In this document: positions 2,762-38,300 of the stretch, one piece after another
Layout: each line of letters starts with the position of its first letter
How positions within the stretch are numbered: position 1 is the stretch's first letter
Assembly: GCA_018436855.1 (NCBI GenBank)
Contig: JAHDKO010000135.1
Span: 22,929 to 86,928, forward strand
From: Deltaproteobacteria bacterium
GTDB lineage: Bacteria; Desulfobacterota; Desulfomonilia; UBA1062
Direction: 5' to 3'
Length of the DNA: 64,000 bases
Position numbers and translations under genes: made by a program
Notes under the pieces: generated by a model
Told to the model about the DNA's origin: nothing
Seen by the model: the letters and a program-made list of their open reading frames with translations, nothing else
The model's database searches: none

Positions 2762-2800
2762 AGTTATCTGTATTAGTTGAAATCGGATATGCTTGTGGGC

Positions 2801-3460: not shown

Positions 3461-3818
3461 TGGTCACCTCCTTACTTGGTACCGAGCCCGAAGATAACCA
3501 ATTGAGATTATTATATTAGCATCATAGGCAGGATAGGAGACAAATACAGGTATGGCCTTTCAATAACTGTATAACGCCTCCTTGATCTCTTTCAAGAGTG
3601 ACACTGCCATAGAAAAATGATTGAGATAATCGAAGCATACACTTTCCTGAGGTGTTCACCTCCTTATGAAATGTCAGCCTAAAAGCTGCTTTTTTTTCTC
3701 TTCTCCTGGAGTCGCTCTTTGAGTTTTCCCATCATAATCTTGATGGTATGACATCCTATGGGGGGGCGATTGTGACATAGGACTATCAGATCATTACTAT
3801 ATATGTGGAGGATTTCCG

Positions 3819-4057
3819 TGGCCCAGTGCTTTGCCCTGGTAGACTGCAACAACTTCTATGCATCCTGTGAGCGCATCTTTAATCTCCATCCAGTCCTCCT
3901 TGTTGAGCATCGGCGCCCCCTCCAGAGTTTCTTCTTTCGTCCCTCTGAAGGTACAACCCCTCGCTCAATTTGGGGGACTTGTATTCCGATACTTTTGGGA
4001 CTTTTAGCACCGGCAATGACACAGGATCAACGATCGATGGGGAAGAGGTGCGATTAA
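3819..4057 (+). pseudogene. umuC/rulB-like (Y-family DNA polymerase) N-terminal remnant
   Basis: GGAGG at 3808-3812 then GTG at 3819. The first ~25 aa, VAQCFALVDCNNFYASCERIFNLHP, closely match the conserved UmuC/MucB N-terminus (MFALCDVNAFYASCETVFRPDL). After about residue 30 the similarity is lost and the ORF stops at 79 aa. No umuD is present upstream. Confidence 0.45.
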
Positions 4058-4365
4058 CTTTGCCGCTACCGGATTCAAGCGCCCCTGGTGGATGCGCCAG
4101 GCGAGAAAGTCTTCATTATTTACCACCTCATGGACGGATCTGCCACGAGTGAGGGTGTGATTTCTTGCGGTAGTCTCATATCCTCACGATATAATAAGAG
4201 CAAGGGAACTGCATAAAATGCACTCAATAAATGAAGATGTAAATGCTAAGGCAACAACTTGCTACCATGCCACTGATTTTTTGTTTGCGAACTATCATAT
4301 TTTACCCTTTACAAATAAAGAATGGTGGCATATTATTTATATATAAATTCTGATAGGGGTTGTAT

Positions 4366-4752
4366 ATGAGGCGCAAGACTATGGCAATCCCGGATGCCGA
4401 TGCTCAGAGAAAAGTGTTGTCAAAGGCGGTAGTCAACACCGCTGACAAGCTAGAGTTCACAAAAAGCAAGCTATCCAAGGTGCTTGGGGTAAGCCCAGCG
4501 ACGGTGACTCACCTCTACGCACATTCCTACGAATTGTCACCTCTTCGCAAGGAATGGGATTTCGGCGTCCTTCTTGTAAGGCTTTACAGGTCCCTCGACG
4601 CGCTTGTTGGCGGCTCTCGTGAGGATGCCCTGGCGTGGATGAACAGCAAAAATAAGGGGCTTGCGGGGCAGAAACCCGCAGACCTCATAGAGAAAACGGA
4701 GGGCCTGGTAAGTGTCGTCCATTACTTGGACACCTACAGAGGTATCATCTAG
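4366..4752 (+). CDS. Xre-family antitoxin (HTH + DUF2384/MbcA-ParS-type) of an Xre-RES toxin-antitoxin pair
   Basis: N-terminal HTH-like segment (KLSKVLGVSPATVTHL). C-terminal segment typical of RES-associated antitoxins (REDALAWMNSKNKGLAGQKPADLIEKTEGLVSVVHYLD). AGGGG 6 nt upstream of the ATG at 4366; the track start is 4360 (TTG). A RES-domain ORF lies immediately downstream. Confidence 0.75.
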   Translation: MRRKTMAIPDADAQRKVLSKAVVNTADKLEFTKSKLSKVLGVSPATVTHLYAHSYELSPLRKEWDFGVLLVRLYRSLDALVGGSREDALAWMNSKNKGLAGQKPADLIEKTEGLVSVVHYLDTYRGII

Positions 4753-4783
4753 AGCACGCCAGTTTTCAGGAAGAATCTGGCGC

Positions 4784-5422
4784 ATGGTGGAATCACAGTT
4801 TGCATCGTCCACCCTGCGCCTGGTCGATAACATAAGAGAGCACGAGATCCTCGAAGACATTCTCGAAGCGAGTAAGCCCCCAATACCAGACGAAGCAAAA
4901 GGCCTGCACTACCTTCTTTTCAGTCCCTTCAGATATGCCCATACTGCCATGTTTGGCACACGGTTCAGAGCCAAAGGTGATCCCGGCGTATTTTATGGCG
5001 CGGAGACTCCGCGCACTGCTGCATGCGAGGTGGGGTACTGGCGATGGATGTTCGTACAGGACAGCGAAGGACTGAAACGCCTATCACCGTCCTCGTTCAC
5101 CGCTTTCAGTGTCCCCTTGGATGATCTCTCAGTAGACCTGAGAGAGAAGCCTTTCAATCGGGATGCAGTTCGTTGGCAACATCCAAGTGATTACTCGGCA
5201 ACCCAGGCATTTGCCAAGATAACCCGCCAGACCAAAGTGGGGGTCATCTTTTACAAATCGGTAAGGAGCCAGGTAGATAGCTTCTGCGTAGCCGTTCTGG
5301 ATCCCAAAGCCTTTGCCCAGAAAAGCCCGGATGCCAACACTCAAGCATGGGTGCTCACGATTGCAGACGAGGTTATCTGGAGCCGTAACCAGGGCGAGGA
5401 GTCCTTCTCTTTGACTTTTTGA
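4784..5422 (+). CDS. RES-domain toxin (putative NAD+-targeting toxin of Xre-RES TA pair)
   Basis: RES-like core FGTRFRAKGDPGVFYGAETPRTAACEVGYW (Arg...Glu) with a downstream Ser-containing segment. The track ORF 4712..5422 overlaps the antitoxin by 41 nt. I prefer the ATG at 4784, 32 nt after the antitoxin stop, but the start is uncertain. Confidence 0.7.
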   Translation: MVESQFASSTLRLVDNIREHEILEDILEASKPPIPDEAKGLHYLLFSPFRYAHTAMFGTRFRAKGDPGVFYGAETPRTAACEVGYWRWMFVQDSEGLKRLSPSSFTAFSVPLDDLSVDLREKPFNRDAVRWQHPSDYSATQAFAKITRQTKVGVIFYKSVRSQVDSFCVAVLDPKAFAQKSPDANTQAWVLTIADEVIWSRNQGEESFSLTF

Positions 5423-18297: not shown

Positions 18298-18796
18298 GCA
18301 GGGATCGATGCCTTTTTTGCTTGCCGTGAACGGTCTTATTCTACGAATAATGCCGTGAAACCCCTCCAGATTGGACATGGAGTCTTCCGTTTGGCCAATT
18401 CGCATCCCGTATTGACTTGCAAGTCCCATAACTAGCTCAAGGGGGAATTCATTGAAGATGACGGCTCTTTAAGGGTATGAAGAGAACAGCTTCCCTGTTT
18501 TCCCCTCGCCCGGAAGGCGCCCGGGAACGATTGGACGCAGTCCGGGTCATATCCTCTGTTTTCCCCTTACTTGGGAGGCGCCCGCTCGACTTGATCAAAG
18601 GGCGGACACGGCAGAGGCGTGCCCGGGGCGAGCCTCTCCGCGGTCATATCGCGATCCATGGTCCGGTCATTGACAAGCCGGCCGGTGATATCGGATGATG
18701 GTATCAAACCTCAGCGGCTGCAAGCGAGCCGGAAGATCACCGGTCGGAGGGCAACGTGCTGCGGGATGACGGGCCGCGAGCAAGAGACCTGCGATG

Positions 18797-18836
18797 ACGG
18801 ACCAGAGATAACGGACCAGAGATAACGGACCAGGGA
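18797..18836 (+). repeat. 14-bp tandem direct repeat (acggaccagagata x2 + partial) in ogt upstream region
   Basis: acggaccagagata | acggaccagagata | acggaccaggga. About 165 bp upstream of the ogt start. Confidence 0.7.
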
Positions 18837-18999
18837 TGAAAGGCCGGTGCCGGGCTGGTGATGCCGGATGGTGATACCCGGGCGGATATGATTCGCCGCA
18901 CATGGGAAACAGCCTCGCCCGGTGTTCACGGAAAGAGATCCATGCCGCATCGTGGGACGGCCCGTGATGCCGCAGCGCCGGAAAAAGGAGAGAAAAGAC

Positions 19000-19605
19000 A
19001 TGAGAACACAGACACCCCTTCAGGACATCACGGCTGACAAAAACTTCGAATCCCGGGCAAAAAAGGCCGGACCGGCCCGGAGCCCGGCTACCTCCGCCCG
19101 GATCACGGTCATGGAAATACCGGCCCCGATCGGGCACATGCTCGCGGGCGCCACGGACAGGGGGCTCTGCCTGCTGGAGTTTGTGAACGGTGAATCGCCC
19201 GAGGCACAGCTCGCAGCGATCGAGAAGACCTTTCGCGCGCGGGTCACGCCGGGTACCGGCCCCCATCTCGAAGCAGCCTTGAAGCAGCTCGAAGAGTACT
19301 TCTCGGGCAGGAGAAAGACCTTCGACCTCAGCCTCGACATGCAGGGCACCCCGTTTCAGCAGGATGCCTGGCAGGCCCTGCTCGCCATTCCCTATGGGTG
19401 CACCGTTTCCTATCAGGAGCAGGCCCGGTCCATGGGGAGGCCCTCTGCGGTCAGGGCCGTGGCAAACGCCAACGGCGCAAACCCGGTCTCCATCATCGTG
19501 CCCTGCCACCGTGTGATCGGCAGCAACGGCACCCTCACGGGCTACGGCGGCGGCCTGTGGCGGAAGCAGCACCTTTTGGACCTCGAAAAGAGGTATTCAG
19601 GCTGA
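19000..19605 (+). CDS. ogt: Methylated-DNA--protein-cysteine methyltransferase (Ogt/Ada C-domain)
   Basis: Active-site PCHRVIG and the conserved C-terminal GYGGGL...K.LL.LE. Start chosen at the ATG at 19000 (MRTQTPLQ) with GGAG about 10 nt upstream. The track ORF starts earlier, at 18922. Confidence 0.85.
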   Translation: MRTQTPLQDITADKNFESRAKKAGPARSPATSARITVMEIPAPIGHMLAGATDRGLCLLEFVNGESPEAQLAAIEKTFRARVTPGTGPHLEAALKQLEEYFSGRRKTFDLSLDMQGTPFQQDAWQALLAIPYGCTVSYQEQARSMGRPSAVRAVANANGANPVSIIVPCHRVIGSNGTLTGYGGGLWRKQHLLDLEKRYSG

Positions 19606-19869
19606 TCTTTCCGGAGAGACAGGCGCTCTTTTGCAGACATCTGCCGGTTCCGCCCCCGGCAGACGAGCGCCCGGAATCAATGGTATGGACCCTTGAAGGG
19701 CAAGCCCTTCGACCCGGCTTCAAACTGCAAGCAGCAGAGGTTGTGACCCTTTCCCGTCCTTGAAAAATATGAATCCTCCTTCTCGCTTCTCCACCCTGGA
19801 CCTCATGTCCCTGTTGATCCCTTTTGTGAAACAACCGATAAAATGAATATATCCGGGAGGTTTCCTGCG

Positions 19870-21102
19870 ATGAGAGAAAAGACCTTTTTCGATATTCACT
19901 GCCATGCCATGAACCTGAGCCATCCGAGCCTGATCGGTTTTGTGAAAAAGATGAACATCGACACACTGCTGTTTTTGAACTCGGTCCCGATTGTCAGCAC
20001 CGTGCTGTCGAAGTGCATCGACACAAAACTCAACCGGGTGATGAACCTGCTCTCGGTCATGGAGCGCGATCTGGGGAACTTTTTCCTGCTCATGGAAAAG
20101 GACTTGGAGCCCTTTCTGCACGACGGCAGGTTCGAGATCTGCGGCAGCTTCTATGACCGGGTGGTGCTCACGCCCTTGATGATGGACTTCGGATACAAGG
20201 GCGTGGACAGCTACCCCGGCATCCATTACCGCGACCTGCCGGAGAAACCCATCGTGGAGCAGGTCATCGACCTTTTCAACGGCATACGCAAGTATGTCCG
20301 GACAAGCGGGCTGAACATCTTCGAGATCTATCCCTTCCTGGGGATCAACACCCGCAACTACGACATGGAAGGCACGTCAGGGAGCACCGGCCTGCCCGAC
20401 CTTCTGGGGAAGTATTTCGGTTCCTTCCTGTCCGAGACGCTCGCCGAGCGCCGCGCACGGCTGCTCGGCGCCATGGGCGGGTTTTCCGGAGACATCGACG
20501 ACTTGCGGGACTACTCATTTGCCGGGATCAAGGTCTATCCGCCCCTGGGTTTCGACCCCTGGCCCGCGGACGACCCGGAGGAGCTGGCCAAGGTGGAGTA
20601 CCTCTACGAATTCTGCGCCGCGAGGAAAATTCCGATCACGGCCCACTGCAGCGACGGCGGATACCACACGCACGAACAGGCCAGGGCCTTTACCGACCCG
20701 GAAAAGTGGGTCCGGGTGCTCTCGCGTCATCCCGCGCTGAAGCTGAACCTGGCCCACTTCGGCAAACAGGACAAGGCCTGGGGTCTTTTTCCGAAAAAGG
20801 AGTGGCAGCAGGCCGTCATAAGCCTGATCGCAGAGTACGACCACGTCTACACCGATTTCTCGTGCTGCGGTTTCGACGAGGGATTCTATGCCCGGCTCAG
20901 CGACACCATACACGACCAGCCGTCCGAGATCAGTGATAAGCTGAGACAGCGGATCCTCTTCGGCACGGATTTCATGATCAACCTGCTCTGGACCGACTCG
21001 TACCGGAGCTATCTCGACACCTTCTCGCGCCAGAGACATTTCAGGAGCCTGGACGCCCACCAGTTGTGCTCGGTGAATCCGCAAAGCTTCCTGTTCGGAT
21101 AA
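19870..21102 (+). CDS. Amidohydrolase-2 family metal-dependent hydrolase (TIM-barrel)
   Basis: Start MREKTFFDIHCH with GGAGG 9 nt upstream. HxH (DIHCH), later His residues (ITAHCSDGGYHTH, LNLAHFG) and FGTDF Asp are consistent with the amidohydrolase_2/ACMSD superfamily. Substrate unknown. Confidence 0.65.
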   Translation: MREKTFFDIHCHAMNLSHPSLIGFVKKMNIDTLLFLNSVPIVSTVLSKCIDTKLNRVMNLLSVMERDLGNFFLLMEKDLEPFLHDGRFEICGSFYDRVVLTPLMMDFGYKGVDSYPGIHYRDLPEKPIVEQVIDLFNGIRKYVRTSGLNIFEIYPFLGINTRNYDMEGTSGSTGLPDLLGKYFGSFLSETLAERRARLLGAMGGFSGDIDDLRDYSFAGIKVYPPLGFDPWPADDPEELAKVEYLYEFCAARKIPITAHCSDGGYHTHEQARAFTDPEKWVRVLSRHPALKLNLAHFGKQDKAWGLFPKKEWQQAVISLIAEYDHVYTDFSCCGFDEGFYARLSDTIHDQPSEISDKLRQRILFGTDFMINLLWTDSYRSYLDTFSRQRHFRSLDAHQLCSVNPQSFLFG

Positions 21103-21138
21103 ATATCGGGGACGGGTTCACATTTCGGCTTTTCCCTG
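21101..21138 (+). repeat. ~38-bp repeat element A, copy 1 (just after amidohydrolase stop)
   Basis: aaatatcggggacgggttcacatttcggcttttccctg. A second copy at 25508-25545 (aaatatcggggacgggttcacatttcacctttcccctg) has 34/38 identities. Confidence 0.7.
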
Positions 21139-21220
21139 GCTATACCACATTGCAGCTTGTGCTGTGAGTCGGCCACTGTTCACGCTCACCGTTCACCACT
21201 ACCACAAGGAGGCCTTCCTT

Positions 21221-21370
21221 GAATCCTCCTTCTTAGTCCGCATAGTGAAGTGCTTTGAAGGTGGGGTCGCATTCCTGTTCAAGCTTTTAGGCTTGAAGTA
21301 GGGTCCAGGGCTTGCCGTTGAAGGTCCATACCATTGAATGGGCTACCAGAAGTAAGCTGCCGGATATGAA
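21221..21370 (+). repeat. ~150-bp intergenic repeat element B, copy 1 (upstream of tetR)
   Basis: gaatcctccttcttagtccgcatagtgaagtgctttgaaggtggggtcgcattcctgttcaagc...gggcttgccgttgaaggtccataccattgaatgg...ggatatgaa. About 80% identical to copy 2 over the aligned length, by eye. Confidence 0.75.
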
Positions 21371-21493
21371 CTCTACAAGAGAATCAACCTTTGCTGCGTG
21401 GATGCATCAGACATCTCAAGGCTGGATGATGGGCGGTGGTGAAAAGGCAATCCAGGTATTGACTAGAATAATATTCTAGCATATAATTCTATT

Positions 21494-22111
21494 ATGAAGC
21501 AGAAAAAAGGCAGGCATACCGGCTCGGAATCGAGGAGGAGGGATATCATCAATGCGGCACTGGCCTGTTTTTCCAAGATCGGCTTCTCCGAAACGAGCAT
21601 GGACGACATCCGCAGTCGTTCAGGAGCCAGCACCGGGAGCATCTACCACCATTTCAAGAGCAAAGAACAGCTTGCGGCCGAGGTTTACATCGAGGGCATC
21701 GGCAATTACCAGGAAGAGCTGATTCGGGTTCTGAAAGGATGCGAAGGGCCGCGTGAAGGCATCCGTGCCCTGATAACTCATCATCTGACATGGATCGACG
21801 AGAACGCCGAGTGGTCGCGCTATCTGTTCCAGAAGCGCCACTCGGTGTTCATGGCATCTGCAGAAGAGAAGATCGCGGCCATGAACAGGGAATTCGGGCA
21901 GAAGATCGTGAAATTCTTCTCACGCCATATCGCGGAGGGTGCGCTGAGGCCTCTTCCTCCCGACATCATCATCTCGCTCGCCTTCGGCCCGTGCATGGAA
22001 ATTACCCGCAGGCACTTCTCCGGCCATGCAGGCACGGATTTTCACGAAGCGGCAGAGCTCCTGAGTGAGGCCGTGTGGCGCGCCCTTTCAGCACCTGGAG
22101 CAGACGGGTGA
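21494..22111 (+). CDS. TetR/AcrR family transcriptional regulator
   Basis: N-terminal HTH (RRRDIINAALACFSKIGFSETSMDDIRSRSGASTGSIYHHFKSKEQL). 205 aa. Flanked by two copies of a ~150-bp repeat. Confidence 0.85.
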   Translation: MKQKKGRHTGSESRRRDIINAALACFSKIGFSETSMDDIRSRSGASTGSIYHHFKSKEQLAAEVYIEGIGNYQEELIRVLKGCEGPREGIRALITHHLTWIDENAEWSRYLFQKRHSVFMASAEEKIAAMNREFGQKIVKFFSRHIAEGALRPLPPDIIISLAFGPCMEITRRHFSGHAGTDFHEAAELLSEAVWRALSAPGADG

Positions 22112-22124
22112 GACAGACGGTTTG

Positions 22125-22270
22125 AATCCTTCTTCTAAAGTCAGCTTCTTGAAATGCTTTGAAGGTGGGGTCACATTCCTGTTCAAGCCTGCGGCTAGGG
22201 CAGGGTCCGAAGGGCTTGCCCTTCAAAGGTCCATACCATTGATCAGGCGACTCAAAGGGGGATATGAAGT
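22125..22270 (+). repeat. ~150-bp intergenic repeat element B, copy 2 (downstream of tetR, upstream of hotdog gene)
   Basis: gaatccttcttctaaagtcagcttcttgaaatgctttgaaggtggggtcacattcctgttcaagc...gggcttgcccttcaaaggtccataccattgatcagg...gggatatgaa. Same orientation as copy 1. Confidence 0.75.
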
Positions 22271-23214
22271 GCAATCCGAAATTTCAGACATATGTGTGCA
22301 AGGAGGTGCCGGTGAGTGAGTGTAGTCTCACATATTCAGGGAAAATCCATCCCCTGCCGCTCTATATAAAGAAGCTCTGTTCCCGTACCAGCGGGTTCAT
22401 GTCCGGAGACCGGTTTCCCCGGATCGAGGCGGTATGGAGAAATTTCCGGATCGATCCGGGCCATCTCGCAGCGACATCCCGCCTGTGCGGGCTGACACCG
22501 GGAAAAACCGTGCCGGTCTTCTACCCGCTCACCTTTCTGTTTCCTCTGCACATGAGCCTGATCACCCACCGGGAATTTCCCCTCTCGTTTCTGAAAATGC
22601 TCCACCTGAGAGACCATATCGTTCAGCACCGCGCAATAGGTGTGGGCGAGCTCATGGGAATATCCAGCCGGATCGCCGGGCAGCGGGTCGTTCCCAGGGG
22701 TATCGAGTTCGATGTGTGCACCACCATCACTTCAGATGGTGCTACCGTGTGGGAGGGCATCAGCACGAACTTCTTTCCCGGCAGGTTCGGAGGGGAGACA
22801 GATCCTTCGCCCCTTTCCCGCTTCGAGCCCATGCCCGGCAGGTGCAGCACCATCCAGTGGACCATGCCCGGCAGGGGCGGCTTCCGGTTTGCCCTTCTGG
22901 CAGGCGACTATAACGGCATTCATTATCTGGCGCCTTATGCCAGGCTCATGGGTTTCAAACGCGATTTTCTGCACGGACAGCGGTCGATTGCCGAGTGCGT
23001 CAGGCGCATCCCCTCGTACGAACAAGAGTCCGTCGTCCTCAGTCTGGTCCTGAAAGGGCCTGTGTATTACCGAAGCGAAGTCTTCTTGAAGTATGCTCCC
23101 ATGAAGGATGGATTCCGGTTCGATCTGCACGCGAGAGACGACCGGAGGCCGTGCATTCTGGGCAGCCTGATTTTCCCGGGCGACGCGGCGAATGAAATGG
23201 AGAGGCCGGAGTGA
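22264..23214 (+). CDS. MaoC-like (hotdog fold) dehydratase-family protein
   Basis: C-terminal LLAGDYNGIHYLAPYARLMGFKRDFLHG matches the MaoC/enoyl-CoA hydratase hotdog signature. The ~200-aa N-terminal region may be a second hotdog. Start uncertain: ATG at 22264, or GTG at 22312 with AAGGAGG at 22300-22306. Confidence 0.55.
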   Translation: MKCNPKFQTYVCKEVPVSECSLTYSGKIHPLPLYIKKLCSRTSGFMSGDRFPRIEAVWRNFRIDPGHLAATSRLCGLTPGKTVPVFYPLTFLFPLHMSLITHREFPLSFLKMLHLRDHIVQHRAIGVGELMGISSRIAGQRVVPRGIEFDVCTTITSDGATVWEGISTNFFPGRFGGETDPSPLSRFEPMPGRCSTIQWTMPGRGGFRFALLAGDYNGIHYLAPYARLMGFKRDFLHGQRSIAECVRRIPSYEQESVVLSLVLKGPVYYRSEVFLKYAPMKDGFRFDLHARDDRRPCILGSLIFPGDAANEMERPE

Positions 23215-23296: not shown

Positions 23297-23812
23297 ATGA
23301 AAAATCTCGAACAGATCGGTATCCATGAGCTGAAGGAACATCTCATCAAAAACTGGATGACCCATGACGCCATGTGGTTTTACCACTGCCTCCAGTCGTG
23401 CGGCATCGACGAGGCCAACCGGCTCAACAGGGCAGCCATCAAATCACTTGCCGCCATCGAGTTCAAGAGGGCCGAGAAGCTTTTCGGCATAACCCGCACA
23501 GACACGTTCGAGTATTTGAAAGACGCCGTTGATGCAGCATTTTCCGTGAGCAAGGGCGACTTCATGAATTTCACCTACACCTTCCCGGAAACCAACGTAC
23601 TCCGCTGGGAGTGGCCCGGGAACACCTGCTTTGCCTATCAGGGCATGCTGCGCATGGGCGTCATCGACCGCTACCAGTGCGGGGTGATCTACCGCGTGCA
23701 GTGCTGGATCGAACAGGCAGGGGTCGGATATACCTTATCCCCGGAGATCAGAGGCTGCCTCATGCACACCCGGGGACGGTGCGCAGGCGAGGTCAGGTTC
23801 GATTTCCCCTGA
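23297..23812 (+). CDS. Hypothetical protein
   Basis: 171 aa from MKNLEQIG (AAGGA 7 nt upstream). The track ORF starts at 23246. No family recognised. Same strand as, and downstream of, the hotdog gene. Confidence 0.5.
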   Translation: MKNLEQIGIHELKEHLIKNWMTHDAMWFYHCLQSCGIDEANRLNRAAIKSLAAIEFKRAEKLFGITRTDTFEYLKDAVDAAFSVSKGDFMNFTYTFPETNVLRWEWPGNTCFAYQGMLRMGVIDRYQCGVIYRVQCWIEQAGVGYTLSPEIRGCLMHTRGRCAGEVRFDFP

Positions 23813-24886: not shown

Positions 24887-25507
24887 ACAAGGATCCTCCT
24901 TTGAGAAAGTGGTGGGTGGTGCAGGCAAACCATCATGAGGAACGCCCATTGCCGAGAGAAAGCACTCCCATATATTGCCCAGAGGGGGTGTTTTGCAGAT
25001 GATTTTTCCAGGAGGGGCGTTTCCTCAAGATTCTCGCAAAGACATATTCCCGGAACATTCGGCAGAAAACAGGTGTGCTTTTCAGGGCCTGGCTCGTCAT
25101 CTAGCGTATCATCAGCCACGGTAAAAAGACGAGCACCGTACCTGCCGGGTGAATCATGGTGCTGGAGAAAGTCTCCTCTCAGAGGCACTGAATATTTATG
25201 GAAAGAGATTAAATTCATATCATAATATAATAATACAAGATCATTTATCACAGAAGAGAGAAAGGAAGTAAAGAGTAAATTTAGAACCTATCCCTAAGAA
25301 CCTATCCATAAATAGGAATCACCTTTCTTATTGAGATAATAGTGGCAGCGAGTTGATGGAGGGCAAGAAAACTGGCCAAGGATTTTTCATATCGAACAAT
25401 GACTTTTCTGAATTGATTGAACCATGAATGACAGACTTCAACGACCCAGCGTTCTGCACGATATTGGGGGTTATGGGCTTTTTCCTATTTTCCTTCCCCG
25501 CGGGACA

Positions 25508-25545
25508 AATATCGGGGACGGGTTCACATTTCACCTTTCCCCTGA
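25508..25545 (+). repeat. ~38-bp repeat element A, copy 2 (upstream AT-rich region of giant gene)
   Basis: See copy 1. Same orientation. Confidence 0.7.
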
Positions 25546-26228
25546 TTTTCCTGATATGGCAAGGGGACGGATATTGGGTACCGTGGGTACCGGGGACAGC
25601 TCGTGGGTGATCCTGTACCTGGTTATGAACAGGGTAAGGCAAGAAATGATCATGAAGCTGAATTACTGTAATCCATATCTGCGGGAAAGGAAAGATGGTT
25701 CAGAGTGTCAAGGAAAATAACTGCCCCGTCTGTAAGAAAAAAATTTCCCTGAGGAATGATTGTCTTCTCTGTACGATATAATATTAAAGTGATAAGATGC
25801 AATATATTGATCACTTATAAAATAACAATGATTGGTAAGAAAATTGCATACGTGGTGAGCTCAGTATAGTATTCGAATGAATACGTGTGGTGTTTTATCT
25901 GTTTCGGGAGTGAGGGGCAAGGATCCGTGAGGACACTGTTGTTCGATGGTATGATTGTTGTGAGTGGTGTACATGGTCAGATCGATTTACCGTTATCTCC
26001 ATATCGCTCTATAAGCATGCCTCGAAAGAGTTCATCCATGATATAGCGCCAGCCAGGGATCCCTTCCTTCTGCCTCCATGCCGTTTCCTTGATCAAAGGA
26101 AACCCGATGTGGAAGGCTGATGTTTTTGTCCTGTGCGGTCTTCGTACCTTCAGGACAGTCATCTATTTTGAGAGCTGTTCGAGCAGAATGCACCTTTCGT
26201 ATAAGCAGTGTATTTTGCACAGTTCTTT

Positions 26229-26336: not shown

Positions 26337-29300
26337 GCGGTCGGGCTGGATATTCGGGCAGCAGAGCCCTTGAGTGCATCCGGCCAGGAATCCGCTTATG
26401 TGCTGAGGATATCCGACTGCAGCGGGGTGGTGGAGATCAAGGCCGGTCAGGCCTCTGCCCCAACACCGTATTCGCCTGCCGACATCCGGCGCCTACCCGG
26501 CGACCCGGATGCCGGTGAGCTAGAATTCTCACTGCAGGGTTCCGACCGGTTTCATCCCCATGTGGAGCTGACCTTTTTCAATGGCGAGGTGCAGGCCTAT
26601 AACGAGGCATTCGTCACCGAGCCGAACAACCCCTCGCTGAGATTTCAATCCGTGTCCTTCGATGCCGACGGCCAGGACCAACGGCTGAACATATCGATCC
26701 AGGCGTCTGATGATATCGATATTTCGTACCTCGGCCTCCAGGCCGTAGGTCTTCGCATCTCAGAACTGCGTGCCGCCGGGGGCGTCATCTCCAGGGCGAG
26801 GCGGCAGGCATTTGCGGATACCTCGGGCAGCATCAGGATCTATCCGGATAGCGATGACCAGGATATATTTGAGTATAGTCTGAAGCTCGACTCGCCGCTG
26901 TCGGCCGAGGAGATGCACCACAATGCCCTGGTTCTCGTGGAAGGCCATGCTGTTGATGCCTCGGGCAACCAGAGCTCGTTCTCCGAAATCGTGATCGTCG
27001 GAGAGGACACCGAGGAGCAGATCTTCGGTATGGAAGTATCGCCTTCCAAGATCATATTCACCAATGCCATGGAGGTAGTGCAAATCATCCCGAGCATCGA
27101 GTTTCAATTCCGGGGATGGGTGCCGCTGCCGGGGGCAGGGCACGGCATCGGATTCTCCTCGTCCGATCCGTCTCTCGTGCATGTATCGAGTGACGGCCGG
27201 GTATATCCGCTGGCAGAGACGGGTGCAAGCCCCGTTCTCGTCACCGTTTCCGTCTCCGGGCTCGAATCCATGCAGGTTCCGGTGGAGGTCTCTTTCACCA
27301 AGGAACTGACAGGCCTGCGGCTCAACGGTTATGCCCCGGGCCAGACCGTTGTCCTGGATAGCCTCAACCATTTCTATCCCCTGCCCACGGTGCTCGGGGT
27401 TTTCAGCGATGGCACCGAGGCCCCGCTGACCGATTTCTATCGCGTGCAGGCGCAGGTGCCTGCGGGCGGCGAAGAGATCCTGACCGTGGACAGCGGCAAG
27501 GGGATGCTCTCCACCATGAGCATCTCCGAAGATAGCCCGATGACAGTGCATTTTACACTCATGCAGAACCCGGGCATCAGCCTCGACGTCCCGGTTGCCG
27601 CTAGGGATGCCCTTCCGGAGATCTCCCTGGATGTGCCTGACAGAGTCGAAGTGGGAGACACGGTTCTGCTGGCGGCGGATGCCTCTGACGATGTCGCCGT
27701 ACAGCGGGTGGAATTCCGTATGGACGGGGCGGTGGCGGGCCGCAGGCAGGCAGCGCCCTACGAGCTGACCATGCCGGCCGGCGAGATGCTGGAAGGCCGC
27801 GTGATCGAGGTCCAGGCAGTAGCCGTGGACAGTGCCGGCCAGATCAGGGAAACCCCGGTACGGGCGGTGACCATCGTTGCCAAAGAGGTCCCGCAGGTCC
27901 CGGCCTACGAGTTCGAACAGCCGATCAACAACCTCAGGGTCGTCGAGGGCAGCCCCTATGTCCTGAGCATCGTGTCGAATCTCGGCATAATGCCTGATAA
28001 CAGCTATGCAAGCGGCATATCATACGCCGAATTCTTTGCCGATGGCCAGAAGATAGGGACCGCCCGGTTCCCGGTGTATGAAAAGCGGCCGGTCCCGAAT
28101 CAGGATAACAAGGAATACCTGTATGAAGTCTGGAAGCTCGAGGCGGCCGCCCCTGTCATATCGACCGAGCAGACGAGCCTGGCAGTGACTGCCCGGGTCT
28201 ACAGCGGAAACGGCGGTGTCTCTGATGCGCCGGCAAAGCTCGTGAAGGTCGTCGAGAATCTCCCGCCGGCCGTCTGTATCATAAGGCCGATGGCAGACGG
28301 CATCGTGACCGCGGGCAGTCCGTTTGCCGTTGAGGTCCAGGTTTCGGACGACACCCTGTCAAAGGGGACCCTCATCGAGCTTCTGGCCGACGATGTTCGG
28401 ATCGCGGGGCGCACCTATAAAAAGGATGAAGAGGGCGTATTCACCGGTGATTACGAGGTGGAGGCCGCCAGAGAATCATTCACGCACCAGGTGGATGCCG
28501 AGGCCCTGGGCAGGGTGCTGGAGCTGAGCGCCCGGGTGGTGGATTATCACGGCAAGGTGGTCGTGTCGGAGCCGGTGCACGTATCGGTCAAGGGCGATCA
28601 GGAACCGACCGTGGCCGTCAGCCATCCCGTCGAGGGCCAGCATGTCGTGTCCGGTCTGCCCCTGGAGCTCAGGGCCAACGCGGCCGACGATCTGGGGATC
28701 AGTCAGGTCGACTTTTACATAAACGACCAGCTTGTCGGCTCAGATTACCGGACCCCGTTTGCCATCATCTACCAGACCCCGTCTTCCATCGAGACCGAAC
28801 AGCCCCTCTCTGTCTGCGCGGTGGCAACCGACACCGGCGGGCACGTGGTCCGGAGCGAGACCGTGACAGCCACCCTCGGCAGGGACGAGGAGCCGCCGGT
28901 GATCAATCTCGCCTCTCCCCCGATCAACGCCACCGACAGCGGAGACGACATCGCCTCGATCGTCGAGGAGACCGAGGCCGTGGTCAAGCTTGCCGGGTAC
29001 GATAACGTGGGAGTGGTCGAGGTCCGCCTCTCCGGCATCCGCAGGGTCGAAGGCCAGGGATACCTCCTGACCGGCAACAGTACTGACTCCATCGGCGAGG
29101 AAGAAGGGCTCAGGGTCCAGCAGCTCCCGGGTGCACTCAATGCCTACACTGCCTTTGTCCTGGTGCGGATGCCCTCGTTCAAAAACCTCAATGGGGTGCC
29201 CTTCGACCGGTACCCCATCCAGGCAGTTGCCCGGGACAGGACCGGGAACACCTCAGAGCTGAGCGCGGTTATCGGGGTGTTCAAGGATCAGCCGCCCGAG

Positions 29301-32300
29301 GTCAGGGCCCTCACGAGCGACCGGACCCGGTACTTTGTCGACGACATGGTGAACCTCGAGGTGGTGGCCCGCGATGATCGCGCAGTCACGGGGCTCACGG
29401 TCGGCCTGTTTGTGGACGAATCTACCGAACCCGTCCGGACAATCACCCACGGCCAATCAGGCGGGTTCGTGCCTATGGAGGTGGTCTCAGACCGCTTTAC
29501 CTTCTCCCTGGCCGAACTCGGCCTGAGCAATGACGGGCACGAGCTCGTGTTCGAAGCCCGGGCGCTCGACGCCATGGGGCACGAGTCCGAGGCGTGCCTG
29601 CTCCATGCATCGGTTGTCATGGACAGCGTCGGTCCGCAGGTGAGCATCGTGGAACCGCCCGTGAGTGATCCGCTCTATGCCGGCCAGAGTCCGGCCTTTG
29701 CCTGGCGGGCGGTTGACGACTCCCTGGTTTCATCCGTGCGCATAAGCGCCCTTGGCTCGGTCGTTTTCGAAAGGCAATATACCGGTTCGGAGTCAGCCGA
29801 TGCCGTCCAGGGCAGCATGGCCGTAGCCGTGCCCGCGGATGTGGCCGAAATGGTCGTCACCATCTCGGCAACCGACATCTACGGGAACGAGGGTTCACAG
29901 GACGTCTGCTACCGGGTCGAGACCGACCGGGCGCCTGAGGTGTCCATACGCACACCTTCCTCAGGGTCCCGGTTCGTAGAGGGGGAGTCCTGTACGGTAA
30001 ACGCTGTTCTGACCGACGACCGGCAGGTGGAGTCGGCCGAGGTCATGATCCTCTCGGGCAGCAACATCCTCGTGCACCGGCCGTTCGACAGTGAGGACAT
30101 CCGGCAGGCCGAGGGCCAGGGCGGATACGTCAGCATGGTGTTGACCGTTCCCACAAAGCCCCAGGGCACATCCGAGCCCATCCGTCTTGTGGTGAGGGCC
30201 TTCGACAGTGCCGGGCAGCAGGCCGAGCAGGCGATCGGCATCGAGATACTCGACGACGGCGAGCCGCCGGTGATCAGCTTGATCGACCCGCAGCAGGCCG
30301 TGGAGATCTTCCCGGGCGAGAGCATCGACATCCAGGCAAGCGCATACGACGAGACCCTCGTGGATACGGGCAGCATCGGGGTCTTTCTCATGGACGCAGA
30401 CGGCCGGGTACAGGGCGTGGAGTGGGAATACCTCGCGCTTACCGAGAAGCGTGAGGAGATACGCGTTCCCAACCCGGGGACCTTGGGCTCGATCGTGGCG
30501 GCATACCGCCACCGGGTGGACGTCAAGGGCCGCATCCGCATCCCCAGGTCGTTTATCGAGCACGCGGGGGAGACCTTCGAGCTCTTCCTGAGGGCAAGCG
30601 ACAAAGGCGTCAACACGGCCGAGACCTCCCGGGTGCCGCTGACCATACTGGCCGACACCACCGCGCCCGAGATCAGGCTTCTGGAGCCGCTGTCCCCCCT
30701 GTACGAGCAGACCGGCTCATTCCTTCGCCTGTCCGTGACCGACAATATCGCCGTGGCCGGGTACACGGTCTTCTTCAAGACAGGAGACGACCAGGCACTT
30801 TCGGTGCTCGTGGAAAAGAGCGGGCTGGAACAGGACCAGGTATTCTTCCCGGGAGCCGGGGACAGCCCGATAGCCCTGCCGCTTCCCCAGCCGTCAGGGG
30901 ATGCCAAGGCCCTGTTCACGATCACCGTAGAGGCCGTGGATACTGCTGGGAACCGGTCCATGGAGACCAGGCTCTTCGAGGTGCTTCCCGACAAGGCGCC
31001 AGCCGTAGGGCTCTTCGGGAAGTCGCCTTCGGGAGATTTTTTGCGGGCCGAGCCGGTGTCTCACGTCGTCGAGATAAGCGATGACATGATCGTGAATAAC
31101 CTGTACTTCCCGGTTCTTACCTCGCTGGACAACATCCAGGCAGACAGAGGTCCGACCGGCATCACGGCCCAGGACGGCGGGCCTGCCGTGACCATGGCAT
31201 ACCCAGAGGCGAACGGGTATGCCGGCGCGGTCTCCATCAACGGAAACCCCTATGTCTCCTTCGAGGACGGCGTGATGACCTCGTACCCGCTCGTTCCGGC
31301 GACCAGGGGGCATTTTGAGATCGATCCGGGCACCTTAAGCGCGGACGTCCTCTACAGCCTGACCATCTATTCCGACGACCCCTGCGGTGCACAGATTATT
31401 ACAAAGCAGGTCGCGGGCGGTCTGCTTCACCTGGATGATTACATCGACGAGAACACCACCCTCATCATCATCAGCCCGGACTTCTCGGCCGTGCCCGGTG
31501 CGCCGCAGTTTCTCCGGCAGATACGCGTGGACCTGAACCGGGACGAAGGGGTCGGCCGGTTCACTTTCGACGGGAGGTCATACTCGGATGACGGTCTGGT
31601 TCCCAGGGTCGAGCTGCTCATCGACGAGTCGAGAGACGGCGCCCTTAAGCCCGCCTTCATCGAGTCGCGGCCCGTGTGCAGCCAGAAGGGTGCCAGGGTG
31701 TACGCGGGGGTGGTTCTGCCCACGCCGGTCGAGCAGTCCATAGGGAGCTACTCCCTGCTTGTCCACGCCACCGACCGCCTCTCCCCGCAGAGGGGGCCCG
31801 TGGCACTGGGTGTGATCTCGACCGGGTCGGTCATGCTCGACACCGAGGCCCCGGCGGCCGCGATCGTCGAGCCCAGGCAGGGCACCGTGCTGGTGCCGTG
31901 CCAGAACATCGACCTGAGCCTGAGGGTCTCGGACAACTCCCGGACGCTTCGCACCATCCGGATACTCGAGAACCAAACCCGCCTGATCCGCGAGATCGGC
32001 GGCGCCTGCGACCGGAAAGAATATACCATACCCTACGAGGTACCACGTGAGTATTCGGGCGGAGAGCTTGAGATCTCCATCGTGGCGCTCGACGAGAGCG
32101 GCTACAGCACACAGAGCAGTGTGCTCTGTCTCCTCGACCGTAACGATGCCCCGCTGCTCAAACCGCTTGCCTTCTCGAGCTACCGGGCGGGGAATGTCTA
32201 CCGCAAGAGGATCACCGACCCGGTCTCGCTCAGTGCGGGAGAGTTCTGGGTGAGGAGCGGCGAGTCCTGCAAGGTGGAGTGCGAGCTCAGCGACGACGCC

Positions 32301-35300
32301 GGGCTGCAGGAGTTCTCGGCCTACCGCCTCTCTGCGGGCCAGCGGGCAGAGACCCTGTGCACCCGCACCTATCCCTACTCCTGTCCTGACAAGCCGGTCG
32401 TCCGCCGGAGCGAGTCGGTCGAGATCGTGTTCGATCAGATCGAACCCACCGAGTATGAGCTCGCAGTGGTCGATACCTATGGCAACACAAGCAGCCGCGT
32501 TCTCCTGATCCATCCGCTGATGAACGTGGTGCCCGAGATCCGCATAACCGGCCCGGCGGACGGGGCCGAGATCGTTGCCGGGACGCTGAGCCTCAAGGTC
32601 GGCGTCGTGGCAGCGGACGACCGGGCGATAACCCAGGACTCGGTCCGGGTGTTCGCCAACGGGGTGCCGCTGTCGTCCATGTGCGTGGGCGGCGACATCT
32701 CGGGCGGACAGAGCGCGGTGCACGAGGCATTTCTCTCGATATACGACAGCCTGGAGAGCAGGTACGGCAAAACCATCGCGGACGAGTACGGTGTGCAGAG
32801 CGGGGTGAACATCCTGATGAGGAACTACCTCCTCACCATGCCTTCGGGCCTGTACCAGCCGGGTGAGGACCTGACCATCTCCGCCTATGTCTATGACTCG
32901 GACAGTGCTGCGGGCATGGATGAGCACTCCCTGGCGGTCAGGGCGGACGACGTGATGCCCGAGGTGATCGTGAGCCCCTCGCAGAGCTCGTATGGACCCA
33001 TCGAGAACACGGACTTCACACTCTCGGTCCAGGGCCGCGACAATATCAAGGTCAACCGGATCGAGATCTACCGGGCATACGGTGTGCTCACCACGCAGTC
33101 AACAGTCGTGAGGACGCCGTACGAGCTGGTGAGGGCGATCGACACCATCCCCGCCCAGGACTACGAGCCCATCGATCCCGACTGGATCGATACCCCCGTG
33201 TATGACCAGCTCATGCACGTGGGACGGATGAGCGAGATTCTTTCGCACTTCGACGGTCTGAGCACCGCCGACATCGCCCGTTATGACCTGTGGGTACGGG
33301 TGGTGGTCAGGGATTCGAGTTTGAGCAGGGAATCCGAGCATTCCTACATGATCCGGATCGACGAGAGGCCGGTGATCGACCTCATCCGTCCCGCCCAGGA
33401 CAGCCAGGCGGTGGAGTCGACCGATCTCACGGTCCGGGTGGACGCGTTCGACGATGTGGGCATCTCGTATGTCATGCTGAGGGCAGACTATCCCGGCGGC
33501 TCCCCCTCGTACGAGCTCAAGCTCCTGAATGCCCCCTACCACTTCTCGGTGCCGGTGCCGGCATATGATCCGGACAATCCCGGCAACAACCGCGTTGATC
33601 TGTCGGTGGAGGCGATCGACACCTATGGGGTGCAGTTCAACGATCCCGACGGGCACGCGGTCTCCAAGAACGTGTCCGTGCTCGTCGTGCGGGACGAGTC
33701 GCCCACCATCGAGATCGCACAGCCCCAGGACAACCATACCCTCACCGAGGGGAGCTATCTGCTGGTGAAGGCCGTGGCCCTCGACGACGTGGGTGTCGAC
33801 CGGGTTGTCCTGAACATCAGCGGGCTCACCCAGGGAGACCGGAGCATGGTCGACCTCGAGTATCCGTACGAGTTCATCTTCGAGGTGCCGTGCGGGCAGG
33901 CGGGCAAAGACCTCGCACTGACCGCATCGGTCACGGAAAAACGGCGGGGAGGAATCCCGCGGACCGTAGAGACCCCGGTGCCGGTCCATGTCCATGTGCA
34001 GCAGGACACCCAGGCACCCGACATCAACGTTGTCCAGCCGGCATCGAGCGGCACGACCGTGGTCGAAAAGCGGCCGCTGCCGTATCACCTGATCATCCAG
34101 GACAACGTGAGTGTCAGCTCGGTGCGGGCCATGCTCTATGCCGACCGGAACCTCGACGGCCAGTTCGGCGAGGACGAGCGCGTCGAGGAAGCGCTGCTCC
34201 TGAGTGCGCCGTATAGCGGCACCTTGCCGGTAAAGACCCTCGATGTTTATCGTGCCGTACCCCCCGGCGACGATCGGCTGGCGCTCCTGTTCAAGGCTAT
34301 AGCCGTCGACGGCATCGGCAATGAATCGATCGCGACCAGGCCCGTGACCCTGGTGCGCAACACCCCGCCCGAGGTGACCGGCATCCGCGTGCTGGACAAC
34401 CGCGGGTTCAGTCTGGGACAGATCGCCGAGATCACCCAGGGCCGTCCCATCGTGCTCAATGTCCTGGCAAGCGATTCCGAGGCGGGAGTGGACAGCGCCG
34501 AGCTCCTGTATGCAATCGGCACTGATCCGGAGCAGGAGGATTTCGTTCTGCTCGGGCAGGACAGCGCCGCGCCGTTCAATTTCCATTTCCAGGTTCCTGC
34601 AGGCCCCGTTGGCGAGCAGGTCTTCTTCAAGGCCAGTGCCCGGGATATCGACGGCTACGAGTCATCGCTCAGCGATGTCATGCTTGCCCTGACCATCACG
34701 GCCGACAAGCCTCCCACGGCACGGATCGTCGATCCCGACAGCAGCCAGGCCGTGGTTATCGAAGGCGAGTCCATCGGCGTCACGGCAGAGGTGCACGACG
34801 ACCTCGGGTCCGAGGGCATCGACCGGGTGGTGTTCTATGTGGATTCCCAGCCCGTGATCTCGGTGTATCAGAGCATGGCGGTGACCGGTGGAGGGTTCGG
34901 GCAGGCACACCTTTACCATACCGACATCAACGCCCCGGAAGGGGTGGACGGCTTTGTCGTCCAGGCGATCGCCTACGACATCCTGGGCCAGGCCGGCGAG
35001 TCACAGATGGTCCTGATCGGGAAGATCAAGGACACCGTGGTGCCCAAGGTCAAGATCCTCTCCCCCGTGGACAACGAGATACTCACCACCGCAGAGCCCA
35101 TCCGGGCCGTGGTGGGAGTGGAAGACGTGGGGGAGATCGATCGGGTCGTCCTGACCTTCTACCGGCAGCATCAGGAGGGAGGCGAATGGGTGACGCTCGA
35201 CGAGTATGCCCTGAACCTGTTCCGTGACGATGTCAGGCAGGAGGGCGACACCACGCCGGTGAGCGACCCGGACTGTTTCTCCTACATCTACTGGGCGGAT

Positions 35301-38300
35301 TTCTCGGGCGGGAATATCCTGCGCCGGGGCGGGCACATGCGCGAGCGTGTGCTGGCCGTGGCCGAGGTGCAGACCCCCAACCACACCGTGAACGCGCAGG
35401 CCGCCTACGAGGTGGGCTGGGCCCTGAGCGAGAGGCGGTTTTCGAGCCCGGCGGAAGACCGCTTCGACCTGGCGGACGAGGTGTACTATACCGCCGTGGA
35501 CCAGTACCTGAGCAAGGGGAGATCAGGCCCCATGGTTGCGGCATGGGCGAGTGCCGACCCGATGAGGATTGAGCAGGGCCTTGGAAACGAGACCATCGAG
35601 GAACTGGGCGGCGGTGCATTGCAATACACCGGGATTGCGCTGTTCGATGCCACGGACAACGAGCAGGGCAACGGCCTTGGCGACTACTTCGTCTATTCAC
35701 CCCTGCTCAGCGGCTCTGCAGAGATGTTCGCCGGCACTATCGGCGAGATTTCCTGCGACGCCAATACGGTATTTGCCGGCAAATCAGGGGTGATCGGCCG
35801 GCAGCTCCAGCCGAACCCCGACAGCCACAGCAACACCGGAACAGACAGATTCCTGCTGTCCATGAAGAGCGAGATACAGAAAGACTGGCTCGATGGCGTG
35901 AAGGGAAGCGGGAACCTCTATCTTGAGAACACGGATGCCGAGCTGCTGATCTTCTCGCCGATGAACGGCGAGTACCAGCTCGGTCTTCCCTACCTGCTCG
36001 CCGGCCGCGTGGACCTGCCGTATCCCGACGTCTATGGTCTTGACCGCAGGGACGATCTCGTGTTTGTGGCCAACGGCTATGGCGGTGTTCAGGTCATCGA
36101 CATCAGCTCCTTCGAGGCCCCCTACCACGTCAGCTTCATCAAACCAAACGGTTTTACCCGCGACGTGCAGGTGCAGGGCAATTTCGCATTCATAGCAGCC
36201 TCCCACGAGGGGGTGGTGGTGGCCGACATCCGGGATCCGCTCATGCCCATCGTGGGCGGGGTTGACACCCTGGGTGTCGCCAACCGTATCCACCTGGCGG
36301 GCAACCGGCTGTTCGTCTCCGATATGGCAGGCGACGGCGGGGTGTCGCAGATCAATGTCATCGATATCTCGGACCCGTACCATCCCGAGGTGGTGCGGAC
36401 CATCGAGCTGAAGCCCGCACGGGCCGACCTGGTCCCTGACGGGGTGTACGACGTGACCCTCCAGGGCAACCTGGCCTATGTGACCGTGCACTACTCCGAT
36501 CAGGAGGATCACCCGGCCCAGTCGCTCGTGGAGATCATCGATCTCGAGAAAGAGCTCGACCCGTCGTGGGATCCGACCGTTCCGGTCATGACCCACCGCT
36601 TCGCGAGCAAAGTTGACTTCGCGGCCCGCGGCGTAACACTGGCCCGCGGCGGCATGCAGGTGGCTGCCGGCAAGTCCGGAATCGACCGCATAGAGTTCAC
36701 CGAGCTGACTATCTTAAGCCACTCCCCGGCTTATGGGGAGCATGATGTGCCTACCAATCTCGAAAGGATCACTATCGAACTCTCGGGTGTCCTGGGATCG
36801 GATGTGGTTTTGGGGGACTACGTCGAGGTGGTCCAGGGCGACGCCCTCATCGGCGAGCATGTCACCTCCCGGTTCCAGCTCGCGTATGCGCTGCGGGACG
36901 GCGAGCCGAACCGGCGGATCATCGAGCTTATCCGCAGCGATCAGTTCGAGCTGGTCCCGAACACACGGTATTTTGTCAGGCTCAAACAAGGACTGAGCGC
37001 TGTTTCGGGCTATGCCCTGGCCAGGGACTATGTCTTCGGGTTCTGGACATCCGGGGCAGGCGCTGCGCCGGCCCCGGATATCGTGTCGATCTGTCCCCTT
37101 GGAGCAGATGGAGACCATGCCTGCATCGCGGCAGGGGGCACCGAAGGCGGGACCGAACTGGTGATCCGCGGGGTCAATTTCGGGACAGACCCGCAGCTTT
37201 TCATCGGCGGGCAACCCATCGTGGTCGAGGAGGTGGAGCCTGCCGGCACGGTCGACGGGTTCGACCGGATCTATGCCGTGACCATCCCGAACTATGCCGG
37301 GCCTGCAGCAGTGACGGTGATCAACGACCACGGTCTCGAAGACACGGTCTACGGCGGGTTCACCTATGTAGACCAGCTCAAGATATCCTTTATCAACCCT
37401 TCGGTGGTCCGAACCGGCCAGACCGGTGCGAACGACGTGGTCGAGGTCACGGGCTACGGGTTCCACAACGGCATCACGCTGACCGCGACCAGGAGCGGCG
37501 ATCCGGATTCGGCTGTCACATACCGGGTAGACAACGAGCACCTGTCGCTCTACAGCGCCGAGCGCATGCAGTGGGTGGTGCCGGATTTCAGAAACTCGGA
37601 CGGGAAAGGCTACCGGGGATTCGTGGATGTCGAGGTCACAGACGAGCTCGGCAGGCGGTTCGTGCTGATGAACGCCCTGTTCTACGGCCGTCTCGAGGTC
37701 AACCATGTGCTCGAGACCGAAAATCCGTACAGCGCATCGGCTATCAGGGCCGAACTCGAGGCCCTGGCGAAAGGAGAGCCCACGGGTTATCTCCCCGATA
37801 CCCTGAAGCTGCCCGCGGGCACCATCGCCGGCCTGGCCGCCGATACCAGGCTCAACCTGGCGTATGTCCTGGGCCGGGGAGTGCTGGGAAGCGGAGTCAA
37901 AGGGCCTGAATACGTCTATGATCCCGACTATGTCGGGCACTACTATGCCCCGGGCTGGATCGGTCTTGTCCGGTATTATCCTGACAGGATCCCCGATGCC
38001 GCGCCGGTGCACGGGTTCTACTCAATCCTGCCGCAGGACATCGTGGCCAATGGCATGGCACTGGGTCCGGATTATGTCTATGTCATTGCACAAGGATACT
38101 CGTTCCCGCACATCGAAACCGAACACGACGGGCGCTCGTGGCTGCTCGTATACGAGAGGGAGACAGAGCCGTTGCCCGATAACCCCCAGCCCAAGGACAA
38201 GTCCGTCCTCTACGAAGTGCCGCTGCCGATCGACACCTCTCCGGAGAAGATCGTCACGGCCGGCAGGCTCGCCTTTGTCAGCGCGGGTGAGAGCGGGGTC

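Follow-up and report, generated by a model that had tools for sequence, protein, structure and literature searches.

The repeats that flank the tetR gene in the window, i.e., the whole 64-kb stretch of DNA analysed here, are probably decayed, non-coding fragments of a MITE-like element, with no function required of them. Three fragments of one repeat (repeat A) and two of another (repeat B) lie within 6 kb of each other in about 70 kb of the source genome, and a homologue bounded by terminal inverted repeats (TIRs) is found in another genome. The fragments and the surrounding genes are presented in Table 1.

Table 1. Repeat fragments, regulatory site and neighbouring genes in the window.
Feature	Positions	Strand	Remarks
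ogt	19000-19605		Upstream neighbour in the cluster
Repeat A, copy 3	19655-19783	-	Partial (3' half of A), inverted; between ogt and the amidohydrolase gene
Amidohydro_2 gene	19870-21102		Between copy 3 and the tetR region
Repeat B1	21097-21138	+	Left terminal-repeat region; core TCGGGGACGGGTTCACATT at 21106-21124
Repeat A, copy 1	21219-21372	+	80% identical to copy 2; nhmmer E 2e-35; 66% identical to L007 1051-1183
tetR promoter and operator	21459-21492	+	TTGACT-17-TATAAT (21459-21487), 11 of 12 consensus positions; outside the repeat
tetR	21494-22111	+	205 aa; Pfam TetR_N (1.5e-16) and TetR_C_10; 62% identical to the TetR of L015
Repeat A, copy 2	22122-22264	+	Body only, no terminal repeats; occupies most of the tetR-htdX intercistronic spacer
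HtdX-like double-hotdog dehydratase gene	22312-23214	+	Probable start GTG 22312; AAGGAGG at 22300-22306
DUF6125 gene	23297-23812	+	Pfam; conserved partner of the dehydratase gene; 171 aa as called in L003
Repeat B2	25503-25544	+	Solo terminal-repeat-like fragment in an AT-rich non-coding stretch

The two copies of about 150 bp that a preliminary description placed around tetR are real: positions 21219-21346 and 22122-22251 are 80.3% identical over 132 columns, with a BLAST E-value of 1.4e-24 against the window. Both the common orientation and the identity of about 80% claimed for them are upheld, and this identity is well above 60%, the level below which the resemblance was to be regarded as alignment noise. 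Their longest local alignment has 77.7% identity over 157 columns, nhmmer envelopes place them at 21217-21359 and 22120-22264, and a 33-nt core (GCTTTGAAGGTGGGGTCRCATTCCTGTTCAAGC) is present in both copies and in none of 100 shuffles. The positions given for them relative to the genes require correction. Copy 1 is not immediately upstream of tetR, given that a gap of 86 nt and then the tetR promoter intervene. Copy 2 begins 10 nt, not 14 nt, past the tetR stop codon (22109-22111), and it does precede the dehydratase gene, yet not immediately, as it ends about 50 nt before the likely start codon. The short inverted repeats described within the copies exist (CCATTGAATGG in copy 1 and CTTTGAAGG/CCTTCAAAG in copy 2), but they are not kept from one copy to the other, where the counterparts read CCATTGATCAGG and CGTTGAAGG, respectively.

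The inverted partial copy (copy 3) and the repeat B pair were absent from the preliminary description. Copy 3 is 97% identical to copy 2 over 36 nt (nhmmer E 2.7e-30), has 79-80% identity over 81-89 nt both with copy 2 and with the homologue in the other genome, and contains the exact 14-mer TGAATCCTCCTTCT in flipped orientation at 19770-19783. It also contains a degenerate TIR-like stretch, GGAGGATTCATATTT, which is equalled by 66 of 2000 shuffles. Between B1, which overlaps the amidohydrolase stop codon, and copy 1 there are 80 nt. B1 and B2 are 90% identical over 42 nt and have the 17-mer GGGGACGGGTTCACATT exactly in common; no A-like sequence follows B2, according to BLAST and nhmmer.

Two further observations concern the surroundings of these fragments. 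Upstream of ogt, a 14-nt tandem repeat (GATAACGGACCAGA, 3.2 copies) occupies 18793-18837; one of the contigs of the same species, MAG contig L003, has one unit fewer (a 14-nt deletion at 18797-18810), and its copy number therefore varies within the species. B2 lies in a stretch of about 1.1 kb (25000-26100) that is AT-rich (42-43% G+C, against 60% for the window) and apparently non-coding. A second 14-nt tandem repeat is found at 25283-25311, and contig L003 ends at 25359.

The homologue in the other genome (L007, a 111.6-kb metagenome contig of ERZ795051) clarifies how the fragments belong together. There, the counterpart of repeat A lies inside a 280-bp unit whose ends are TTCGGGGACGGGTTCACATT and its inverted complement. 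These TIRs of 20 nt are 95% complementary, are separated by 240 nt, and have the same sequence as repeat B of the window. The enclosed A homologue shares 66% identity with copies 1 and 2 and 80% with copy 3, and the tail of copy 1, GCTGCCGGAT, corresponds to GCTACCGGAT in it. The unit is located between the 3' ends of a small ORF on the RecD side and of a CBM48 gene, a locus unrelated to the window. Its flanks, AATTC and GAAAA, present neither a 5-bp duplication nor a clear direct repeat, and a CGAA at the unit could represent a duplication or simply a longer TIR. A transcript of the unit would fold into a long hairpin (-116 kcal/mol). Relatives sharing the synteny of this locus (L016-L023, 86% protein identity) lack the element, at a divergence too great for a base-precise empty site.

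Given that the ends of this unit are the window's repeat B, B1 and copy 1 are, judged by sequence, one near full-length element which has lost its recognisable right end. Together, B1 and copy 1 span about 265-276 nt, which agrees with the length of the L007 unit. On the same grounds, copy 2 is best read as a body without ends, copy 3 as a rearranged half, and B2 as a solo end. The intact form would then measure about 270-280 bp and consist of a TIR of about 20 nt (TCGGGGACGGGTTCACATT), a variable spacer, and a body of about 135 nt, which is repeat A. Within the body, there is a TIR-like box (GGGGTCRCATT) as well as a 30-nt block of high conservation (GGGCTTGCC..GGTCCATACCATTG). The similarity between the ends (B1, B2 and the right end of L007) spans about 35-40 nt, and these ends start with GGGG. 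A family mixed in this manner, with a one-ended copy, a body-only copy, an inverted half and a solo end, is what MITE remnants look like, which favours the MITE reading. So do the agreement in length and the presence of a TIR-bounded homologue at an unrelated locus of another genome.

Other properties of the window copies weaken this reading. No degenerate TIR above shuffled controls follows copy 1 or copy 2, neither flank of copy 2 has a TIR-like sequence above such controls, and copy 3 likewise has none; the unit with a TIR at both ends is that of L007, while copy 1 retains the left end only. No target-site duplication was identified at any window copy, and the 5-base CAGAC found on either side of copy 2 was judged coincidental. 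No transposase, with matching ends or otherwise, is present among the ORFs scanned. Finally, the location of all copies within 6 kb is less easily reconciled with random transposition than with local duplication or a role tied to this locus. The repeats could instead have arisen from ordinary intergenic DNA through local segmental duplication and rearrangement, their resemblance to MITEs being incidental. The clustering of the copies, with no others in about 70 kb, agrees with such an origin, as does the lack of target-site duplications and right TIRs in the window. Nevertheless, it leaves the TIR-bounded homologue at an unrelated locus of another genome unexplained, and the flanking genes were not duplicated along with the repeats. 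We therefore consider it unlikely.

The distribution of the family was surveyed in the source species and in sequence collections. Contigs of MAG GCA_018435705.1 and of three Logan assemblies match the window at 99.8-100% identity, and the same-species assemblies (L003-L006) all carry repeat A. No further copy of A or B was found in the 64-kb window or in the 6.2 kb by which the MAG contig extends it to the left. When the exact 3' core was scanned over 185,579 species-representative genomes, a set which does not include the source genome, two hits were obtained, both by chance and in coding regions. The exact-core scan of metagenomes yielded one true homologue, which is that of L007, and three chance hits. 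Viral contigs presented no match to the TIR or the core, and BLAST of the full elements and the TIR against plasmids returned chance-level matches only. Among the latter is an 18-nt TIR match beside IS fragments in the Phaeobacter piscinae plasmid pP36_b (L027). The match to the TIR core TCGGGGACGGGTTCACA is exact over 17 nt (3502-3518), with a fragment of an IS3-type OrfA on one side and a gene for an IS110 transposase on the other; given the E-value of 8 and a single copy in 7 kb, it is probably a chance match. As far as is measurable by the exact 3' core, the repeat family is rare, and this rarity also weakens the MITE reading.

The same-species assemblies present two peculiarities of their own. 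The contigs of three independent Logan assemblies (L004-L006) all break inside copy 1, at window positions 21296, 21297 and 21308, which could be caused by a near-identical copy elsewhere in the genome or by strain variation at this site. In addition, L005 departs from the window after 24396 (its positions 3090-3114), inside an ABC substrate-binding protein gene, owing perhaps to an insertion specific to the strain or to a chimeric assembly.

Elsewhere in the window, long ORFs (123-969 aa) follow one another on the minus strand over about 20 kb (28769-48614), and the ten of them tested have no Pfam match at E-values up to 0.001; they could form an uncharacterised gene cluster, or be ORFs called on the wrong strand. 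Many Asp-rich coding repeats (of the DxDGDGLxDxxE type, thrombospondin-type-3-like) are found in very large ORFs at 58200-63800. Nuclease and toxin-type genes occupy 1940-5422, namely a Mrr_cat restriction endonuclease with a zinc ribbon, a SNase with an Ada zinc-binding domain, and a RES-domain protein (4712-5422). The latter is preceded by a small ORF, with which it could form a toxin-antitoxin system.

Several identities were considered for repeat A. A protein-coding origin was rejected, as a six-frame chimeric pseudo-protein query gave no match at E-values up to 10, and so was a pseudogene fragment, since the KCFEGGV frame is common to the copies over about 14 codons only, after which the frames diverge. 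The start of the repeat, TTGAATCC, does not derive from a tRNA or tmRNA, given that ARAGORN finds none in the window. An integron attC site was discarded because there are no RYYYAAC/GTTRRRY core sites, and no integrase among the ORFs scanned. A sigma-54 promoter, which would lie on the minus strand of this 30-nt block, was rejected because no copy has the GG-N10-GC spacing and bases. The repeat is also not a REP or BIME, as the unit measures 130-280 nt, is non-palindromic, and has no further copies in the window.

The Rfam 15 search that the preliminary description called for yielded no match at gathering level in the window, and a permissive search around all copies and the L007 element returned noise only (E >0.4, <21 bits). 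Single-sequence folding of the repeat gives z-scores of -1.2 and -0.4, and in an alifold consensus of the four sequences, too few for covariation analysis, the covariation term amounts to only -0.81 kcal/mol. Repeat A contains neither a promoter consensus nor an intrinsic terminator, and no reading frame is conserved between its copies. This lack of a coding signal, Rfam family, promoter or terminator, together with the unremarkable folding, favours the MITE reading.

The body is conserved in blocks. The 30-nt block and the GGGGTCACAT box are near-invariant among the four copies in two genomes, while the remainder is 55-65% identical; across genomes, perfect blocks of 14-17 nt stand against a background of about 60% identity. 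Such block-wise conservation could reflect selection for a host function, which weakens the MITE reading. One alternative is that repeat A, and chiefly the 30-nt block, is a functional cis element, either the site of a regulator other than TetR or a structured-RNA or small-RNA module, maybe domesticated from a mobile element, which would coordinate expression of the amidohydrolase gene, tetR and htdX. Besides the invariance of the block and the box, this is suggested by every intergenic spacer of the small cluster having a piece of the repeat while about 64 kb of flanking genome has none, and by the location of the block 70-170 nt upstream of three gene starts or promoters. However, copy 3 is inverted, the distances to the genes vary, and the L007 copy is flanked by convergent 3' ends, a location in which it would not be expected to act close to a promoter. 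The Rfam, folding, covariation, promoter and terminator results above also speak against a cis element, as does the orthologous operon without the repeat in the relative L015. We regard it as an unlikely explanation. A more specific version holds that the invariant blocks are under selection, as a domesticated structured RNA of an undescribed kind or as the docking site of a DNA-binding protein, adding a layer of control over the TetR circuit and tying together the amidohydrolase gene, tetR and htdX-DUF6125; we consider this distinctly unlikely.

The regulatory site that can be recognised in the region lies outside the repeats. The tetR promoter, a near-consensus sigma-70 promoter, is the only promoter-like site in 20900-22500, and its spacer holds a perfect 17-nt palindrome, CTAGAATAATATTCTAG (O1, 21463-21479). 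A weaker second site with 3 mismatches overlaps O1 at 21476-21492; beyond it, no further match to the palindrome exists in the 64 kb, repeats included. The palindrome core, TAGAATAATATTCTA, recurs before the orthologous tetR in L015, where the promoter region reads TTGACTAGAATgatatATTAGAATAATATTCTAATATG. The preliminary description held that the layout was not that of a standard palindromic TetR operator, which is contradicted by this conserved palindrome inside tetR's own promoter. As in canonical autoregulated TetR operons, the palindromic operator overlaps the promoter and is conserved in the orthologue, a likeness which applies to 21463-21479 and not to the repeat.

The same description proposed that the repeats are TetR operator/promoter cassettes common to tetR and htdX. 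In its favour there is only their position before the two genes. The conserved palindrome is elsewhere and has no match inside the repeats, the copies of repeat A have no conserved palindrome in common and no promoter consensus, and L015 does without the repeats. The proposal is thus unsupported, and we find it scarcely plausible.

The downstream gene was correctly labelled a hotdog dehydratase, as the family profile matches the HtdX structures 3wew and 4oob with an E-value of 1e-30; the HtdX-like family is small, with 18 proteins. Public gene calls start this gene at ATG 22264 (316 aa), while the position of GTG 22312 is the N-terminus in nine of eleven homologues. The public start is therefore probably 16 codons too early, because the ATG next to the repeat was picked up. 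The 16 annotated N-terminal residues, which begin beside the repeat and run through the spacer, are thus probably untranslated.

The pair htdX-DUF6125 is conserved in five relatives (L011-L015), with different regulators upstream: TetR in the window and L015, and MarR in L011-L014. In L015, tetR, the HtdX-like gene and the DUF6125 gene are in the same order as in the window, and the tetR-htdX spacer measures 57 nt, versus 200 nt in the window, where copy 2 occupies it. Neither repeat A nor repeat B is present in the L015 operon, which is too diverged to be aligned across the insertion point, and the repeat is also absent from the other relatives, in which htdX-DUF6125 is behind a MarR gene. 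Since L015 shares the gene order and the palindrome without the repeat, comparison of the sequences indicates that tetR-htdX-DUF6125 and its operator predate the repeats, which are later additions. The absence of the element from the L015 operon, the MarR relatives and the relatives sharing the L007 synteny favours the MITE reading, although these "empty sites" carry less weight because they come from relatives too diverged to be aligned across the insertion.

This bears on the other proposal of the preliminary description, according to which tetR was inserted with its flanking repeats as a MITE-like unit. The repeat does look MITE-derived, given the 20-nt TIRs of the L007 copy, but tetR was not brought in with it, as the tetR-htdX-DUF6125 order exists repeat-free in L015. 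For the same reason, we consider it very improbable that copy 1, tetR and copy 2 are a present or past composite non-autonomous transposon similar to TIME-COMP, mobilising tetR. Two same-orientation copies do bracket one gene plus its own promoter, and same-orientation TIME pairs are known to mobilise intervening DNA (PMC4133298). However, the adjacency of tetR-htdX-DUF6125 and the operator are common to the repeat-free L015, such a transposon would need an outer terminal repeat on either side but has just B1 on the left and none at copy 2, and the 3-nt flank match GGA/GGA is no evidence of duplication.

Under the MITE reading, one or more copies would have entered the intergenic spacers of a pre-existing ogt/amidohydrolase/tetR-htdX-DUF6125 neighbourhood, and would then have been truncated, partly inverted and probably copied locally. 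What remains would be B1 with copy 1 upstream of the tetR promoter, copy 2 between tetR and htdX, copy 3 as an inverted half preceding the amidohydrolase gene, and the solo end B2 4.4 kb downstream. TetR would bind the palindromic operator inside its own promoter, a conventional form of control, and tetR, htdX and the DUF6125 gene would be read as one transcript, with copy 2 as a passenger in the intercistronic RNA. The repeats themselves would play no necessary part in this regulation.

The behaviour of published MITE and TIME families is similar, which also favours this reading. Their members are <500 bp long, with TIRs of 4-30 or about 40 bp; many copies are partial, a genome sometimes has one or two of them only, and insertion within operons is known (PMC10969869, PMC3184786, PMC4133298). 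The direct repeats of old MITEs are reported to fade (PMC10969869). The Chunjie MITE of Geobacter uraniireducens, for instance, measures 178-235 bp, with 21-bp TIRs and 9-bp direct repeats, and one of its copies lies inside an operon without breaking it. Like Chunjie and other bacterial MITEs, the present element is, in its intact form, of about 280 bp, non-coding and intergenic, with 20-nt TIRs and a transcript predicted to form a long hairpin; one copy lies in an operon spacer, and many are partial and without ends. Unlike Chunjie, it presents no clear flanking direct repeats and is not A+T-rich, and a high copy number is not demonstrated. Its sequence resembles that of no named family, Chunjie being compared by description only.

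GGGG is a feature of Tn3-family ends. The present element resembles TIMEs in its size, its GGGG ends and the end similarity of about 35-40 nt. As with the copies seen here, TIMEs are few per genome, are mostly without direct repeats, and may enclose other DNA as a pair (PMC4133298). TIMEs are defined by inverted repeats of about 38-40 bp homologous to those of the Tn3 family and by a 5-bp duplication. Here, no such homology is apparent, no such duplication is present, there is no nearby Tn3-type transposase or resolvase, and the host is Desulfomonilia-like rather than Pseudomonas. With REP/BIME and ERIC-type repeats, which are often co-transcribed within operons, the element has in common that it is repeated, non-coding and intergenic. 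REPs, however, are G+C-rich palindromes of 20-40 nt in tens to hundreds of copies, whereas the repeat described here is far longer and non-palindromic, and a high copy number is not seen.

For annotation, these results mean that neither TetR operators nor a riboswitch-like leader should be seen in the repeats, and that the likely TetR operator of the uncharacterised tetR-htdX-DUF6125 operon can be stated: TAGAATAATATTCTA. The family could be of use as a marker in strain typing, or to account for breaks in assemblies. It is an apparently rare repeat element, found in Desulfomonilia-like bacteria and not named before, and it would represent, if shown to be mobile, one more miniature element residing inside an operon without breaking it.
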